Positions 26,283 through 40,024 are shown, numbered from the stretch's first letter. The stretch is DNA of 64,000 nucleotides from an uncultured Nitrososphaerota archaeon (GCA_963838925.1 CAWISW010000002.1:384001-448000), one strand, 5' to 3'. Translations and numbers: made by a program. Notes: generated from the letters alone by a model not told the origin.

Positions 26283-26370
26283 CAAAAACATTCCATTTTC
26301 CTCCATCTTAAACGTTCTTCACTAAGGATTCTGTTAACTGATTTGCACGGTAAGGTTCGGAATTTCTTCA

Positions 26371-27323
26371 ATGACTATTCTGACTATAAGGCCTTCAATC
26401 TCAGTCACCCAATCGATAAATATGAAGGTCACCAAACGATGCCTGTTGGTCGCGCCTTTCAGCAGGAGGGCTCAATGGTGGCCCCTGATTGTAATGGGGC
26501 TCTTTTCTCTGATACTCTATTGGGGTCAGTTTCGGACGTTTCTGGGTCTCAACGCGCCGACGCTGAGCGAATTGGCCAACCTTGCGAATTTGCTTATCGT
26601 AGGGTTGATTTTTGTGGAGGCTTGGCCTTTTTTAGGCATCCACGGCTCCATCTCCGTAAGAGACAACTAGAGTATCATCGTCATCCGATTATCTACAAGC
26701 TTCCATTCATGACTCAGGAAGCTTATGATAACCCCGTTCTAGAGATATTCGCGGAAGTTCTCAATTTCAGCGGGTTTCTGCCAATAGTGCGAGCCACCGA
26801 CTGTCATGCACAAGTCATGTTCTTGGGGACGCAGAAGAACAAAGTCATAACCGCCCTTGACGACCGAATATGGGACAACGGGAAATCTTCGTTAACAATG
26901 CACACTGGCTTGCACCCAAGGTCAGTGAGGCTTTTCGCTTTGGACACCATGAGCCACATCATTGTCGAGAAGCGAGACGATGAAGATGGCGAGATTACTC
27001 CGGCGATCTTGCCAAACGGGGAATATCGGATGATTATTGTGCTTGATGCAGAGGACACTATGTCTACTGAGCAAGAGCTGGGAACCTTCAATTTTCCCGA
27101 CTCGTTCCTTGCTGAGGCTCAAGCTGAGACTTCATCTTACGATGTGTGGAAAGGAAGAGTGAGTGACACTGGCTATGCCATCTTCATAGAGAGAACTAGG
27201 GAAGGAAAGAACATAGCAAACGTGGTTGGTAAAGTTCCGGACAAGCGGTTAGCCGAACTGAAGTCAAAGGAATTGAAGGGTTTCGAGGTTAGGACATTGT
27301 GGCCCGCGCCTCCGTCATCGTAA
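26371..27323 (+). CDS. Passenger hypothetical membrane protein split across two frames (-1 shift at about 26628-26634)
   Basis: Frame of 26371 gives two TM helices ending WPF; the -1 frame continues FRHPRLHLRK... to 27323; T TTT TTA at the junction; start uncertain. Confidence 0.5.
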
Positions 27324-27370
27324 TATCCATATGGATATAGACTTAAGTAGTGGCATATCCATAGGGATAT
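27323..27370 (+). promoter_or_regulatory. Transposase promoter with two 16-bp palindromic operators
   Basis: ATATCCATATGGATAT (27323-27338) and ATATCCATAGGGATAT (27355-27370) flank TATA-like CTTAAGTA (27342-27349). Confidence 0.65.
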
Positions 27371-28277
27371 GCGTCGAATCATGCCTTGCAAATACTGCCT
27401 CTCGCAATGCGTCAAGCCTAACGGCTCGATGAAGGGAAAGAAGACGCTAAAGTGCATGGATTGCGGTAAGAGATTCACGGAGAGCGAAAGCCTTCCGAAA
27501 ATGAGGGTGAACAAGCACGCCATAGTCACGGCCCTCTCGATGTATTTCGAAGGCCTCTCTACGCGCAAGGTCTCTCGCCAGCTAGAGTCGATATTCGGAG
27601 AGAAGGTTTCGCAGGTCACGATTTGGAAATGGGTGAGGAAGTATTCGGTTCTAGTCAGCGCCTACACGAAGACGCTCTCGCCCCAAATCGGCGGAAGGTG
27701 GCACCACGACGAGACCGTGATACGATGCGAGGCTCAGAACCAATGGTTCTGGGAGATGCTAGACGAAGACACGCGCTTTATAGTCGCGTCGCACCTTTCA
27801 GAGACTAGGACGCTCAAGGACACAATCACCCAATTCAGGAAGGGGCTTGAGACGGCCAAACACAAGCCGACCGTCCTGTATGTCGATGGCTCGAACCAAT
27901 ACGACCAAGCCTTCAACACGGTCTTCTATTCGAGATACAAGGTAGCAAGGCCTGAACTAGTGAAGAACATCGGCATACGCTCCCGCGAGACAAACAACAT
28001 CATAGAGCGACTGCATGAGACCGTGAAGGAGCGCACCCGACCGATGCGCGGGTTCAAGAACCAAGACTCGGCCCGAGCGATCTTGGAGGGATATGTGGTG
28101 AATTACAATTTCGCAAGGCCTCACCTGTCCTTGAAGGGGAAGACTCCCGCACAACAGGCGGGAATCGAGGTGAAGGGATGGAAGCAATTGGTAGAAAACG
28201 CCATAAAGAAGGAGGCCTTGAACCCACAAAGTCAGGAGGGAGAGCGAATCACAATCGCTCCTTTGCAGGTGGTATGA
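27369..28277 (+). CDS. IS6-family DDE transposase with N-terminal Zn finger
   Basis: CKYC...CMDC; YFEGLSTRKV HTH; WHHDET, VDGS, NNIIERLH catalytic D-D-E; RPMRGFKN; YNFARPH. Confidence 0.92.
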   Translation: MRRIMPCKYCLSQCVKPNGSMKGKKTLKCMDCGKRFTESESLPKMRVNKHAIVTALSMYFEGLSTRKVSRQLESIFGEKVSQVTIWKWVRKYSVLVSAYTKTLSPQIGGRWHHDETVIRCEAQNQWFWEMLDEDTRFIVASHLSETRTLKDTITQFRKGLETAKHKPTVLYVDGSNQYDQAFNTVFYSRYKVARPELVKNIGIRSRETNNIIERLHETVKERTRPMRGFKNQDSARAILEGYVVNYNFARPHLSLKGKTPAQQAGIEVKGWKQLVENAIKKEALNPQSQEGERITIAPLQVV

Positions 28278-28456
28278 GCGACATGAGAAAGGCGCTGGTT
28301 GCACTACCGGAGGAAGTGTGGGCCATTATCGACCGAGACCTAGGCGACACTATGGGCCACGGCTACTCGGACACGATAAGGAGCATCGTTTTAGCATGGC
28401 TCTCGGAGAACGGATACCTAGTGAAAGGAGGAAAAGGCCACGGCAAAGAAAAGTAA
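28274..28456 (+). CDS. Ribbon-helix-helix (CopG-like) protein
   Basis: ATGA overlap with the transposase stop; MRKALVALPEEVWAIID...YSDTIRSIVLAWL. Confidence 0.7.
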   Translation: MSDMRKALVALPEEVWAIIDRDLGDTMGHGYSDTIRSIVLAWLSENGYLVKGGKGHGKEK

Positions 28457-28577
28457 GGACGAGGAAATCGACATACTCGACGATATGCTGACCTCCCTAG
28501 TTGACCTCTTGGAAGAGAAGGGCGTTATTACCCAAGAGGAATGGGAACAGCGCATCAAGAAGAAACTCAAAACATAG
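28440..28577 (+). CDS. Small helical protein with apparent ACG start
   Basis: AGGAGG at 28426-28431, 8 nt before ACG; (M)AKKSKDEEIDILDDMLTSLVDLLEEKGVITQEEWEQRIKKKLKT. Confidence 0.6.
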   Translation, partial: TAKKSKDEEIDILDDMLTSLVDLLEEKGVITQEEWEQRIKKKLKT

Positions 28578-28616
28578 ATTCATATAAGAAGCGCCTTGGA
28601 GAATCAACCGACTAGA

Positions 28617-28727
28617 ATGTCCGGCTCCTTCGACAGCGTCGTTGAGCTGTTCGCCGCAGCGATAGCAGCGATTATTGGCCTCTATGTAATCTACATCTTG
28701 GTCAAGACACTTTTCTTCGGCGGATAG
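28617..28727 (+). CDS. 36-aa single-TM peptide (passenger)
   Basis: MSGSFDSVVELFAAAIAAIIGLYVIYILVKTLFFGG; TATA-like CATATAA upstream. Confidence 0.5.
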   Translation: MSGSFDSVVELFAAAIAAIIGLYVIYILVKTLFFGG

Positions 28728-28728
28728 C

Positions 28729-28869
28729 ATGAACCCATCCCTTGTCCTAGCAGGTGGAATCATGATGCTGATTGGCGTGTTCGAATTCTCGAACAATCAG
28801 CCATTGGAATTCCTGACTGTTTTGTTAGGAGGGTTTACCATGTATCAAGGGTCGAGAAGTGGTAGATAA
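28729..28869 (+). CDS. 46-aa hydrophobic peptide (passenger)
   Basis: MNPSLVLAGGIMMLIGVFEFSNNQPLEFLTVLLGGFTMYQGSRSGR; starts 1 nt after the previous stop. Confidence 0.45.
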   Translation: MNPSLVLAGGIMMLIGVFEFSNNQPLEFLTVLLGGFTMYQGSRSGR

Positions 28870-29099
28870 CGAAGGATGAGAAAACTGGAAGGCCAACCCC
28901 TTCTAAGTATGACCGCCTTTTCGGGATGTCATTTTTTCTCGTCGCGGGCTATCTGATTTACTACTTGGTCTCTCAGCAATCGAATCTGAGTGAAGCATCA
29001 GAGGGAGTTATAGGCGCGATAACTGTGGTCTGCCTTGTACTCGCCGGAATAGTGTTCACAGGTAGAGATTTTCCCGATATCAAGGTCTTATCGGCATAG
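28866..29099 (+). CDS. Small 2-TM protein (passenger); ATA start or internal ATG 28926
   Basis: ..YDRLFGMSFFLVAGYLIYYLVS...GVIGAITVVCLVLAGIVFTG..; ends 11 nt before the right IR. Confidence 0.45.
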   Translation: MTKDEKTGRPTPSKYDRLFGMSFFLVAGYLIYYLVSQQSNLSEASEGVIGAITVVCLVLAGIVFTGRDFPDIKVLSA

Positions 29100-29241
29100 A
29101 TTTTAGCCGTGTGCAAATCAGTTAACAGAATCTTCACTAAGAGACGACAATCTGCGATTTTGAGGGGAAAATCGGGTGCTCAGGGAGCCGCGGGGAGTCC
29201 AGCGGTTTAATATGAGCAGTAGGGCCCTCGAACCCCTGGAA

Positions 29242-37928: not shown

Positions 37929-38312
37929 TTGGTAAAGGCAGTAGAGAACCTGAGGAAGAAGAAGCTCACCGGCGGGAAGAGGCGCCCGTTCCGTGGACGC
38001 AAGGCGTGCGAGGCAGACGACTACGCTTTCGAGACGGCGGTGGGCGAGCCTGTCAGCTCTCCCAAGCGCACGAGGGGAGGTAGCTGGAACTTCGGCCTGC
38101 GCTACGCTAACAAGGCCAACGTCTTCGACCCTTCCACAAGCAAGACCGTCAAGACCGACATCCTCAGGGTGACGGCGAACCCGGCCAACAGGGAATACGA
38201 GAGGAGAGGCGTCATCACGCGGGGGGCCACGATCGAGACCAAGCTCGGCAAGGCGAGGGTCACCTCGAAGCCCAGCGACGACGGCGTCGTCAACGGCGTC
38301 CTCATCAAGTAA
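37929..38312 (+). CDS. rps8e: 30S ribosomal protein eS8
   Basis: KKLTGGK, RTRGG, NPANREYERRGVITRGATIET.LG.ARVTS.P..DGVVNGVL. Confidence 0.96.
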   Translation: MVKAVENLRKKKLTGGKRRPFRGRKACEADDYAFETAVGEPVSSPKRTRGGSWNFGLRYANKANVFDPSTSKTVKTDILRVTANPANREYERRGVITRGATIETKLGKARVTSKPSDDGVVNGVLIK

Positions 38313-38520
38313 GAAGGGGTTCCGCTAACTCTTCGGCTCAAGCCGTTGTCGAGTCAACTTGCTGGCATCGACTCGGAGGATTAGGGTAGTCGTCCCGTTC
38401 CACGTCACCGCTTCACTTGCCAGCCCTTTTTCCTTCTCAATCGGACTGCAGGAGGTAGTAGCTTGTTGCGAGCGACATTCACCCTGCGTCTCCGACCGGG
38501 AGAGAAGGGAACGGTCGAAC
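38300..38520 (-). ncRNA. Putative TnpB omega/reRNA overlapping the tnpB 3' end (boundaries approximate)
   Basis: Inference from the TnpB family rule; the ORF has a long non-globular tail after RuvC-III running into the element end. Confidence 0.45.
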
Positions 38521-39654
38521 CTCGACCGCCCCCTTGCGGACAGGTTCATGGCTGCGTGCACGTCCCTGTCTGTCCACCTGCTACACGCCTGACACCACAG
38601 CATCCTCGCATGCGCGACATCGTCCCTTGCGGGACTGCGGAGCTTCTCCCCACACGTCGAGCACCTCGACGAGGAACCAGAGGTGTCAGACCTCGTGAGC
38701 TGGATTGTGGTCACGCCCCTCCACGCGGCCTTGTATTCGAGCATCTTCTTGGCCTTCCAGTGGGGCCACGAGTTGAGCCTGAACCTATACTCCGCTCCCT
38801 TGCGGTTCCCCCTGTGATACAACTTACTGATGCCCGTCAGGTCCTCGATGGCGAGAGCGGCCCCGTCCTTCGCGGCGACGTCGACGACGTAGTTCGTGGC
38901 CGCGTGGATGAGCTGGTCGCCCCTGTGATTCGCCCTCTCCCAGTACTTGCGGGCGAGCCTCCTTCGCATCCTGACGTCGTTCCTCTTGAACGAGCCGACT
39001 ATCTCCCTTGTAGTCTGCCTGACCCTGACCAGCTTTGACATCCCAACTACCGTGACCTTCTCTCTGTCCCCGAACGCTATGTTCTTCTCGTTCCTGTCCA
39101 CGCCGTAGACCCTCCTGATCTGGGCAGGCTCGATGTCCTCGCTGTAGCAGAGTGAGAGCGAATCGCGCGTTAGGGTAAGGCTCCTCACCTCCCTGTCGGC
39201 GAGCTTCTTCAGCGTGTATGGTTCGAGTTGGATGTCGAAATATTTGTCGCGCCTCAGTGGGATGAAGAGCCGCCCCTTCATCGTGATGAAGAACCCGGAG
39301 ATGATGCACACGACGGGTCTCAGAGGTCTTGCATGGCTGACCCTGACGCCTCGCCTCTCGCCCTTTTCACGGCTTCGGACGACGGCACAGGCCCGCGTCA
39401 TCGATGCGAGCTTGTAACACGAAGGCAGTTTGATGTCCTTGAGCGTGCGGTAGAACCCCTTCATCCCTCTGCGGCTCTCGATCTTGTTTTCTTCGGCGTA
39501 CTGGATGGCGTTGTATGTGAGGGTCAAACACTCGGAGAGCAGGTCGCCGAGCTGCAGGCTGGAATAAGATTGAGTGACGGACTTTGTGGCTCGCAACCAT
39601 AAGCTACACTGGAATCGTATAAATGCGCACATGCGCCGAAGAGTTAACAGAGCC
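38318..39654 (-). mobile_element. Non-autonomous tnpB-only element with IS6-like terminal inverted repeats (1337 bp)
   Basis: IRs GGTTCCGCTAACTCTTCGGC (38318-38337) and GGCTCTGTTAACTCTTCGGC (reverse complement of 39635-39654), 17/20 identical; direct repeat TAAGAAGG at 38310-38317 and 39655-39662. Confidence 0.9.
38325..39596 (-). CDS. tnpB: TnpB RNA-guided endonuclease
   Basis: RuvC-I YGVDRN, RuvC-II AIEDL, Zn finger CSTC...CQAC, RuvC-III DRDVHAAMNL; TTG start 39596 with TTTATA about 22 nt upstream. Confidence 0.93.
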   Translation of the reverse strand: MRATKSVTQSYSSLQLGDLLSECLTLTYNAIQYAEENKIESRRGMKGFYRTLKDIKLPSCYKLASMTRACAVVRSREKGERRGVRVSHARPLRPVVCIISGFFITMKGRLFIPLRRDKYFDIQLEPYTLKKLADREVRSLTLTRDSLSLCYSEDIEPAQIRRVYGVDRNEKNIAFGDREKVTVVGMSKLVRVRQTTREIVGSFKRNDVRMRRRLARKYWERANHRGDQLIHAATNYVVDVAAKDGAALAIEDLTGISKLYHRGNRKGAEYRFRLNSWPHWKAKKMLEYKAAWRGVTTIQLTRSDTSGSSSRCSTCGEKLRSPARDDVAHARMLWCQACSRWTDRDVHAAMNLSARGRSRFDRSLLSRSETQGECRSQQATTSCSPIEKEKGLASEAVTWNGTTTLILRVDASKLTRQRLEPKS

Positions 39655-39724
39655 TAAGAAGGAAACTACTATAACACTCGCGACACGCGGCGGTCGCAGT
39701 CGAGCACGGGTTGAGCGCCTCTAG

Positions 39725-40024
39725 TTGAAGGAATACGAGCGTTTCGTCGTCTGGCTCGACTATATCGACTCAGAAAGGAAGCGGAGCGAGGGGCGCAGGG
39801 TCCCTCTGAACTCGTGCGTGCGAGCGCCGAACCTGGAGGAGATGGTCCAGGCGTGCAGGAAGCTCAACCTCGACGCCCAGCCCGAAAAGGCATTCTACCC
39901 CCGGGCCTCGCGCCGACAGTCAGGATACGTCTCGATAAAGAAACAGGGGCAAAAACAGCAGGTTATCATGGCAATTGCCCGAGAATTGTCAAGAATCAGG
40001 GGTTCGCAGCCAAAGAAAGTTTAA
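39725..40024 (+). CDS. srp19: Signal recognition particle protein SRP19
   Basis: VVWLDYIDS..KRSEGRRVP, P.LEEM..A, K.YPR, GYV. Confidence 0.93.
   Translation: MKEYERFVVWLDYIDSERKRSEGRRVPLNSCVRAPNLEEMVQACRKLNLDAQPEKAFYPRASRRQSGYVSIKKQGQKQQVIMAIARELSRIRGSQPKKV

Follow-up and report, generated by a model that had tools for sequence, protein, structure and literature searches.

The benefit usually ascribed to TnpB is the restoration of elements that have been excised without a scar, and a 2026 review (PMC13565253) holds, in the part that treats this question, that elements which never excise gain little from it. The corresponding sections of the same review describe IS200/IS605 elements as having neither inverted repeats nor duplications and as inserting 3' of a fixed short motif. 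It is already published that TnpBs may lie between inverted repeats, be linked to DDE transposases and, in some cases as solo genes, be mobilized in trans: the relevant portion of Altae-Tran et al. (2023; PMC10691335) distinguishes six such DDE-linked branches and names IS630, and the DDE-associated families named in the matching part of the review are ISL2, IS630 and IS1031 (PMC13565253). In Fanzor, according to the passage of that review concerned with it, the duplication is short and conserved and belongs to the TAM, with the 3' copy placed in the scaffold. The archaeal SisTnpB1 is reported, in an excerpt of the preprint 10.1101/2023.03.06.531077, to use a TTTAA TAM, to tolerate WNHNN and to have a seed at +1..+10. 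Members of the IS6 family, as set out in the family sections of PMC7986276, have 8-bp direct repeats, 15–20-bp inverted repeats, a GG tip and the motifs cTGTt and caaa, and are thought to move replicatively with recombination-dependent resolution; those sections list one passenger-carrying member and the archaeal clades Halobacteria, Thermococcales, Methanococcales and Sulfolobales.

The locus described here resembles each of these systems in part. With the TnpBs of IS200/IS605 (ISDra2, SisTnpB1 and the IS1341-type solo tnpB) it has in common the TnpB/Cas12f fold, the RuvC D/E/D residues, a zinc ribbon, a structured RNA over the 3' end of the gene and the right end, and a guide expected beyond the right end, and with the IS1341-type solo tnpB the lack of a transposase gene in the element. 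Unlike IS605 (no repeats, no duplications, a fixed TAM of 4–5 nt), it has inverted repeats of ~20 bp and a variable 8-bp duplication, and unlike the IS200/IS605 system it has no Y1 transposase that could be found in its genome, and solved TnpBs are distant (E 1e-6 to 1e-7). As in the DDE-associated TnpBs of PMC10691335, within the portion describing them, tnpB stands between inverted terminal repeats, its 3' end no more than 250 bp from where the transposon ends, and, as for the solo members, the ends resemble those of transposase-bearing elements and mobilization in trans is presumed; unlike those families that the parts of the sources cited name (IS630, ISL2, IS1031), the ends are of IS6 type. 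The locus shares with IS6/IS26 the 8-bp duplications, the 15–20-bp repeats with GG tip and cTGTt and the occurrence of IS6-type DDE transposases in the same genome and window, but differs in that the transposase gene is missing inside the element and the 'caaa' motif is absent. Like Fanzor in eukaryotic DDE transposons, it joins a TnpB-type nuclease to a duplication-making transposon, and its TAM/guide logic must accommodate the duplication; unlike the short conserved TA and TTAA duplications within the Fanzor TAM, the duplication here is 8 bp long and unconstrained.

This arrangement was not found described in the literature on TnpB with IS6, on TnpB in Thaumarchaeota or on IS6 with TATA targeting. 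In particular, the main text of PMC10691335 (Altae-Tran et al., 2023), the supplements of which may include IS6, has no whole-word match for 'IS6'; the DDE-related portion of that paper makes no mention of promoter-directed insertion for DDE-associated TnpB, and the family sections of PMC7986276 report no promoter-directed, oriented target choice for IS6. What appears to be new, as far as no mention of it was found and subject to those 2023 supplements, is the combination of IS6-type ends, an unconstrained 8-bp duplication that would enter the guide, and insertion directed by BRE/TATA.

Anatomy of the element and of its copies

In the stretch of DNA analysed (64,000 nt from an uncultured Nitrososphaerota archaeon; hereafter the window), the ribosomal protein S8e gene rps8e (37929..38312, plus strand; ORF list and Pfam PF01201, 9.4e-31) and the SRP19 gene (39725..40024, plus strand; PF01922, 1.3e-18) bracket a long minus-strand ORF with a Cas12f1-like TNB domain. 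The element, with corrected bounds, is 1337 bp long (38318..39654), and its first and last bases on the plus strand, GGTTCCGCTAACTCTTCGGC and GCCGAAGAGTTAACAGAGCC, are inverted repeats of one another at 17 of 20 positions, likewise a corrected figure. The right terminal repeat (38318..38337, minus strand) has its outer tip at 38318, the base up to which the copies align, and reads GGTTCCGCTAACTCTTCGGC from the tip inward on the plus strand; the left terminal repeat (39635..39654, minus strand) has its outer tip at 39654 and reads GGCTCTGTTAACTCTTCGGC on the minus strand. On each side of the element stands one copy of TAAGAAGG, at 38310..38317 by the right end (RE) and at 39655..39662 by the left end (LE). 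The rps8e stop codon, TAA at 38310..38312, forms the first three bases of the RE copy and remains intact after the insertion, as the first-pass annotation had stated.

The sole gene within the element is tnpB (38325..39596, minus strand, 423 codons from a TTG), and the ORF list contains no transposase gene inside it. The start is uncertain: the open frame extends to 39632, inside the left repeat, and in both paralogues in-frame stops upstream leave the TTG as the first start. A TATA-like box, TTTATA (39618..39623, minus strand), lies 22 nt upstream of the TTG, a spacing near the mode of 23–25 nt of 80 promoters of this genome, and its position is kept in all three genome copies (as ATATTT in L002); it is likely to be the tnpB promoter.

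To judge from its sequence, the protein is a divergent member of the TnpB family. The model PF07282 (the TNB/zinc ribbon domain between RuvC-II and RuvC-III) matches at 50.4 bits (2.5e-13; cut-off 26.3), the TnpB domain model TIGR01766 just passes (33 bits against a cut-off of 32) and NCBIfam guided_TnpB NF040570 reaches 70 bits, below its cut-off of 100. All of 14 sequences keep the catalytic residues D167 (GVDRNEKN), E251 (AIEDL) and D345 (DRDVxAA) unchanged; in this triad the E and the second D align to solved relatives, and the zinc-ribbon cysteines C315, C335 and C338 are invariant. In HMMER, the solved chains of Cas12f and TnpB-like proteins matched with E of only 1e-6 to 1e-7; with an AlphaFold model, for which 14 natural sequences were used (pLDDT 70.8, falling below 50 in the last 56 residues), Foldseek gave AsCas12f (9e-14), ISFba1 TnpB (2e-11) and ISDra2 TnpB (4e-11), all with probability 1.0 and TM 0.46–0.52. 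Pairwise dN/dS over the first 345 codons is 0.11–0.28, and the TnpB protein is therefore kept by selection. Pfam, invariant residues, dN/dS and Foldseek support a TnpB-type nuclease, as named in the first-pass annotation, and one under purifying selection; the gene encodes an intact, active-looking TnpB RNA-guided nuclease.

The genome itself (1.84 Mb in 3 contigs, 87% complete) holds two paralogues of the element, which are 82% and 78% identical to it over exactly the same span and end at the same bases, between duplications that differ from that of the window (TTTCGGCC and TGCACTGG); the direct repeats match at 8/8 positions in all three copies. The 20-nt end has 21 matches in the genome when five mismatches are allowed, and those with three or fewer lie solely at the six ends of the three copies. 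Six genomes of the same genus, those in which the rps8e–SRP19 junction was readable, have the site without the element, as ...CTCATCAAG|TAAGAAGGAAAtACTATAtCAC... or a close variant: rps8e, with an identical AAG-stop end, runs directly into a single TAAGAAGG, exact or altered in one or two bases, and then into the SRP19 upstream region. Since these six congeners carry a single copy without the element, and the paralogues agree, we regard the 8-bp duplication as a true target-site duplication; the element evidently went in behind the stop codon of rps8e and ahead of the SRP19 promoter (BRE/TATA), and TAAGAAGG was duplicated in the process. The empty site that the first-pass annotation had reconstructed hence exists in nature and, the duplication being real, a guide derived from the flank would begin with it.

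Beyond this genome, TnpB protein matches at E <= 1e-20 occur in 27 of 61 related genomes, and the named relatives are metagenome-assembled genomes labelled Thaumarchaeota, Nitrososphaerota or Candidatus Gagatemarchaeum. Copies were delimited by tip motif and duplication. The genome set began with 30 loci of 45% identity or more, of which 24 were accepted (3 in the own genome and 21 relatives elsewhere) and 6 dropped, one at a contig edge (L008) and five mis-delimited (L010, L011, L039, L040 and L045). The 24 copies have common ends and duplications that are all different, matching at 8/8 positions in 12 and at 7–8 of 8 (at most one mismatch) in 18; duplications are sometimes 9 bp. A metagenome set has the same build and again different duplications: 21 of 42 scored loci passed a 7/8 duplication filter and, with 3 duplicate sites removed, left 18 non-redundant copies, among which L150 (the same mis-delimited element as L010) was kept. 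Inspected by eye, L010, L011, L039 and L040 have a plausible left end that the motif described below precedes by ~20 nt, and their duplications have decayed. A TnpB family of ~41% identity is also present in the same genomes.

The ends and the transposition family

The element is not IS605-like; its ends fit the IS6 type, with a GG tip, cTGTt, ~20-bp inverted repeats and the 8-bp duplication (of the repeat motifs, CTGTT occurs next to the GG tip feature, whereas 'caaa' does not occur). Against membership of IS200/IS605 stand the 17/20 inverted repeats, the variable 8-bp duplications and the result for the Y1 (HUH) transposase, PF01797 having 0 matches in the own genome at its 87% completeness. 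IS6-type transposases are at hand: the genome has four DDE_Tnp_IS240 loci, and one of these, an IS6 transposase, lies within the window at 27369..28277 (NCBIfam 'IS6 family transposase' NF033587, 141.7 bits, cut-off 125). The wider search covered 45 DDE loci, of which 14 could be delimited, 25 had no call of terminal repeats plus duplication, 3 were unmatched by two queries and 3 gave spurious delimitation calls that were rejected (L087, L134 and L139). Among these 45 there was no transposase-bearing element with near-identical ends, the best agreeing at 36–38 of 48 end bases, and at no locus do both genes lie within one pair of ends, the sole co-occurrence (L088) being two elements in tandem.

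From these sequence comparisons, we consider the element a non-autonomous transposon with ends of the IS6-family type. It also has the marks of a DDE-associated TnpB, namely inverted terminal repeats, a stop codon (TAG) 7 nt from the tip and related ends on transposase-bearing elements, and we infer that an IS6-type DDE transposase would carry out its transposition in trans.

Oriented placement beside host promoters

When the 24 genome copies are aligned by their ends, the duplication (-8..-1 from the left end) and the whole right-end flank contain zero information. Farther out on the left, positions -20..-15 from the left end read A-T-W-T-A-A at 1.0–1.7 bits each, followed by G and C in about half of the copies, and T stands at -11 (17/24) and -10 (18/24), that is, at -3 and -2 from the duplication. 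The strongest part of the flank is the TATA hexamer at -12..-7 from the duplication; over 41 sites, T occurs at -3 and at -2 in 28 each. With a leave-one-out weight matrix (PWM), 23 of the 24 sites fall within the top 0.6% of random genome positions and 20 within the top 0.1%, and the site in the window scores 7.5, a value reached by 0.05% of random positions. The motif is missing at one copy (L046, genome G009), which sits in tandem behind a transposase-bearing IS6 element at the same spot; there the promoter motif is found just past the IS6 element, and the same duplication occurs three times. Scored with the genome-trained matrix, 12 of the 18 metagenome left flanks reach at least 6 bits, as against 1 of 18 right flanks, and 17 of 18 lie above about the 99th percentile of random positions, the single miss being the known mis-delimitation (L150), which scores -15.

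Read on the other strand, the motif is nAAnGC-TTAWAT, a BRE with a TATA box after it, both directed away from the element. The tRNA genes of the genome carry the same pattern ~30–37 nt upstream, as do 80 TTAWAT hexamers with an ATG-initiated ORF 18–37 nt later (mode 23–25), and outward ORFs start 36–47 nt past the duplication in 15/24 left-end flanks compared with 2/24 right-end flanks. In the window, the host BRE/TATA of SRP19 (39663..39675, plus strand), AAACTACTATAAC, is seen in the empty sites and matches the genome promoter pattern, and transcription of SRP19 leads away from the element; a copy in another genome (L035) sits in the same way at the rps8e promoter. Altogether, placement 8 bp upstream of a BRE/TATA, in this orientation, holds at 40 of 42 delimited sites. 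Elements of this lineage insert 8 bp upstream of archaeal promoters, the left end facing the BRE, and this is why the T-rich flank exists. A T-rich motif beside the duplication does, as the first-pass annotation anticipated, recur at other insertions, but it is a host BRE/TATA firing away from the element.

The transposase-bearing IS6 elements of the same genus behave likewise but are looser in this respect. Among the 14 that were delimited, the motif stands in register at the left end in 4 and at the right end in 3, is shifted 5–9 nt further out in 6 and is absent in 1; since it is in register at 7 of 14 elements of this kind, it need not be a TAM. The left end faces the promoter in register in 23/24 TnpB elements compared with 4/14 transposase-bearing ones (p 2e-5), and the T's at -3 and -2 from the duplication are found in 71% and 75%, whereas the matching A's of the BRE are found in 45% and 30% of the 80 generic promoters (p 0.036 at -3 and 1.2e-4 at -2), both comparisons being made on small samples of related elements from several subfamilies.

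The 40 oriented sites provide a clean case of promoter-directed integration in archaea and link transposition with the transcription machinery in a way that is directly testable. The yeast elements Ty3 and Ty1 integrate at Pol III genes, at a short, set interval ahead of a promoter to which TBP-type factors bind. The likeness is one of analogy only, and in one respect, namely that the insertion keeps a constant, short distance to a downstream promoter, a safe site in a compact genome; the enzymes and the domain of life differ, and the archaeal lineage is without a known tethering factor.

Structured RNA, putative guide and possible TAM

The last 240 nt of the 24 delimited copies were aligned together with 20 nt of flank. 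RNAalifold predicted 33 pairs in 7 helices, 11 of the pairs with changes on both sides; paired cells amounted to 96.0%, compared with 34–49% when the partners were slid by 1–3 columns, and the covariation score of 0.282 (0.127 in shuffles) was reached by 0/500. The many G.U pairs make the structure strand-specific and fit an RNA of the tnpB-sense strand. In the last two helices, which include two pairs with compensatory changes, a conserved core (GUUG...ACU) pairs with AGUUAGC inside the right inverted repeat, and they close so as to leave 6 nt (GGAACC) up to the element tip. Folded singly, the RNA sequence of the copy in the window gives -91.2 kcal/mol (z = -3.2); the synonymous rate (dS) is 0.2–0.6 in the last ~60 codons and 0.5–2.2 in the core; and Rfam, at a permissive threshold, returned no relevant family, only a chance snoRNA match (E 0.76). 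This covariation argues for a structured, omegaRNA-like RNA covering 38533..38324 on the minus strand, over the last ~70 tnpB codons and the RE repeat, and reaching the tip. An RNA that ends inside the element is accordingly not favoured, and a structure that reaches the tip is what a flank-derived guide needs.

In all characterized TnpB systems that we know of, the guide lies beyond the right end. Here, by analogy with IS605/IS607 TnpB, the putative guide template is 38298..38317 (minus strand), made up of CCTTCTTA (the duplication) and CTTGATGAGGAC (the antisense of the rps8e 3' end); section 9 of PMC10691335 covers in part the location of the guide in characterized systems. On balance we favour the reading that the guide consists of the duplication and the flank. 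Transcription would run on into the flank, so that the 3' part of the read-through RNA would be CCUUCUUACUUGAUGAGG... and the guide would comprise CCUUCUUA, the duplication, and then antisense rps8e. The first-pass annotation had proposed that the duplication becomes the seed of such a guide and that a T-rich TAM exposes empty alleles and spares the occupied one, and its reading of both junctions proved accurate. The minus-strand flank at 38317..38300 is CCTTCTTACTTGATGAGG; in the occupied allele it is preceded by GGAACC, the reverse complement of 38318..38323; the other copy of the duplication is preceded by TAGTTT (39663..39668 reads AAACTA on the plus strand); and on the TTT side just the 8 duplicated bases match the RE flank, the next base being G instead of C. 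The geometry of self and non-self is hence as claimed. To a guide that starts at the tip, the empty allele would present TTT and then CCTTCTTACTTGATGAGG..., where a 16–20-nt guide match would be contiguous, and TnpB would cut and recombination copy the element in; the occupied allele would be spared, because at the right junction the match follows GGAACC and at the left junction it extends for 8 nt and then runs into the repeat.

The T-rich flank at issue is the complement of the SRP19 BRE/TATA, GTTATAGTAGTTT, and the TT nearest the duplication is 39664..39665. A T/A-rich motif does lie 5' of the duplication on the tnpB-sense strand, as the TAM proposal requires, but both flanking T's occur together in just 20 of 41 sites, which is weak for an obligatory TAM. 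The best-conserved part of the flank is too far from the duplication to be the TAM for a guide starting at the tip: the TATA hexamer, considered as a candidate, is rejected since it stands 6–7 nt from the duplication and the last bases of the element mismatch the intervening ones. The duplication itself, being unconstrained, can only be guide or spacer. Conversely, selection acting on a TAM that lies 5' of the guide match would lead to the strict register and orientation of the TnpB elements, and the relaxed TAM on record for SisTnpB1 means that a weak motif does not exclude a TAM. We consider a TAM role of the T-rich flank less likely than not; taken as a whole, the guide and TAM interpretation of the first-pass annotation is partly supported.

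The anatomy is secure as regards an IS6-ended, TnpB-only element with a real duplication, beside a promoter, with a structured RNA to its tip. We give an even chance to the complete account, in which this non-autonomous element, by means of an active-looking TnpB and a flank guide, would home into empty alleles. Homing itself is our inference: the copies are old (78–82% identical) and the site is empty in six congeners, so that there is no sign of spread by this route. Moreover, because IS6 movement is described as replicative, nothing would need restoring and the usual benefit of a TnpB would not apply. An intact, selected TnpB with its RNA, on the ends of a family believed to be replicative and to make variable 8-bp duplications, puts the restoration model to the test: TnpB may promote genuine homing into unoccupied alleles, seeded by the duplication, or else its function is a different one. 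We suggest, tentatively and as a rather unlikely case, that an archaeal IS6 lineage uses the promoter (BRE/TATA, perhaps with bound TBP/TFB) as an oriented landing pad, that TnpB has co-opted the complement of the BRE A-tract as its TAM and that the duplication is the guide seed. If so, RNA-guided homing would serve a replicative, duplication-making DDE transposon, and there would be a third TAM solution beside those of IS605, where the TAM is the transposase target, and Fanzor, where it is the conserved duplication. For a compact archaeal nuclease, the copies offer a naturally occurring series of putative guide/TAM pairs.

It is a serious possibility, although we put it at clearly less than even, that promoter targeting alone explains the flank: the BRE/TATA would be what the IS6-type machinery aims at, or where insertions survive, the TnpB TAM would be another, relaxed or unknown one, and the T's would be idle in cleavage. 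The agreement of the motif with the tRNA upstream regions and the 80 TTAWAT-plus-ATG promoters, the outward ORFs on the left-end side and the presence of the motif in sites that are still empty all point this way, as do the transposase-bearing IS6 elements that have it without a TnpB (7/14 in register and 6/14 shifted by 5–9 nt), the tandem of both element kinds at one promoter in G009 with its threefold duplication, the limited co-occurrence of the two T's and the precedent, in the preprint excerpt, of an archaeal TnpB with a relaxed TAM (WNHNN; 10.1101/2023.03.06.531077). Such a view leaves aside the far stricter register and orientation of the TnpB elements and the excess of T's over generic promoters, which weigh against it within the small related samples concerned. 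A role of TnpB other than homing (resolution or stimulation of IS6 cointegrates, copy-number control or defence-like cleavage), or processing of the RNA inside the element such that the flank is irrelevant, strikes us as improbable; restorative homing has no obvious use where transposition is replicative and resolved by recombination, as the mechanistic sections of PMC7986276 have it, and the relatives give no evidence of spread to the empty site, yet the structure here reaches the tip as in characterized TnpB systems.

A division of labour like that of Fanzor, with the 3' duplication in the RNA scaffold, the 5' duplication in the TAM and a guide beginning after the duplication (CUUGAUGAGG...), would follow the solved Fanzor complexes of duplication-making transposons (PMC13565253, in its structural part); we judge it very improbable here, as none of the 8 duplication positions carries information across 41 sites, so that the protein could not read it as a TAM, and the last conserved helix closes before the tip with nothing conserved beyond. 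Finally, we rejected, as having next to no likelihood, the idea that TnpB itself makes the duplication, by a staggered RNA-guided cut ~12 and 20 nt from a TTTAA-like TAM with subsequent capture of the element. A TATA-like ATTTAA does precede the duplication by 12 nt and the left end by 20 nt, and SisTnpB1, in the excerpt of its preprint, recognizes TTTAA and cuts with 5' overhangs at 15–18 and 20–28 nt; but no guide could match new sites, GG/cTGTt ends with 8-bp duplications are the signature of IS6, the transposases of which are present, and the same duplications, similarly placed, are made by transposase-bearing IS6 elements that lack TnpB.

Insertion beside promoters and repeated use of sites

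Within the window, a transposase-bearing IS6-family element of 2806 bp (26327..29132) has perfect 20/20 ends, GATTCTGTTAACTGATTTGC, and is flanked by a 9-bp duplication, TTCACTAAG, at 26318..26326 and 29133..29141. It encloses an IS6 transposase gene (27369..28277; NF033587, 141.7 bits) and a passenger ORF of 326 aa (26343..27323) with no match in Pfam or NCBIfam; the list of family members in the IS6 review (PMC7986276) holds, among its entries, only one that carries a passenger. The left end of this element, too, is adjoined by a TATA-like motif (CTTAAAC). Among 14 delimited transposase-bearing IS6 elements of the genus (loci among L056–L141), 13 have a BRE/TATA-like motif at either end that lies no more than 9 nt from the register of the TnpB elements, which are inserted 8 bp upstream of a host promoter. 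Insertion near promoters seems to be general among these archaeal IS6 elements, and we found no report in the literature of IS6 target choice of this kind.

In one related genome (G009, contig C3, about 416–420 kb; loci L088 and L046), a TnpB element stands in tandem with an IS6 element that carries a transposase gene, both at one promoter, with three copies of the duplication TTCGTCGC(G); the very same bases have been struck by two independent insertions. The rps8e/SRP19 neighbourhood has likewise received two independent insertions: in another species (G020, contig C18; locus L035), a related copy of the TnpB element lies directly upstream of the rps8e promoter, on the opposite side of rps8e from the window copy.

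Three more distant TnpB genes, with 27–41% identity to the window TnpB, are present in the same genome (C1:60581-61519, C1:189650-190579 and C2:545716-546711). The sequences on either side of the C2 locus have their orthologues around a different TnpB element, which belongs to another genome (L020); this suggests that the two sites are a shared hot spot.

The two ends of the tnpB frame

At the 5' end of tnpB (window 39594..39632), the longest frame begins with an ATG within the left inverted repeat. In both full-length paralogues an in-frame stop leaves as the sole start a TTG that lies 22 nt downstream of an internal TATA-like box, which suggests that tnpB is translated from a leaderless TTG. 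A conserved, out-of-frame ATG is found 4 nt upstream.

At the 3' end, coding and RNA constraints are superimposed. The frame is open across the entire structured-RNA region (window 38325..38530 and its counterpart in each of the 24 delimited genome copies), and in 15 of these copies, despite indels, the stop lies exactly 7 nt from the element tip, which places it within the inverted repeat (TTRAC). The corresponding tail of TnpB (residues 368–423) is predicted to be disordered (pLDDT < 50).
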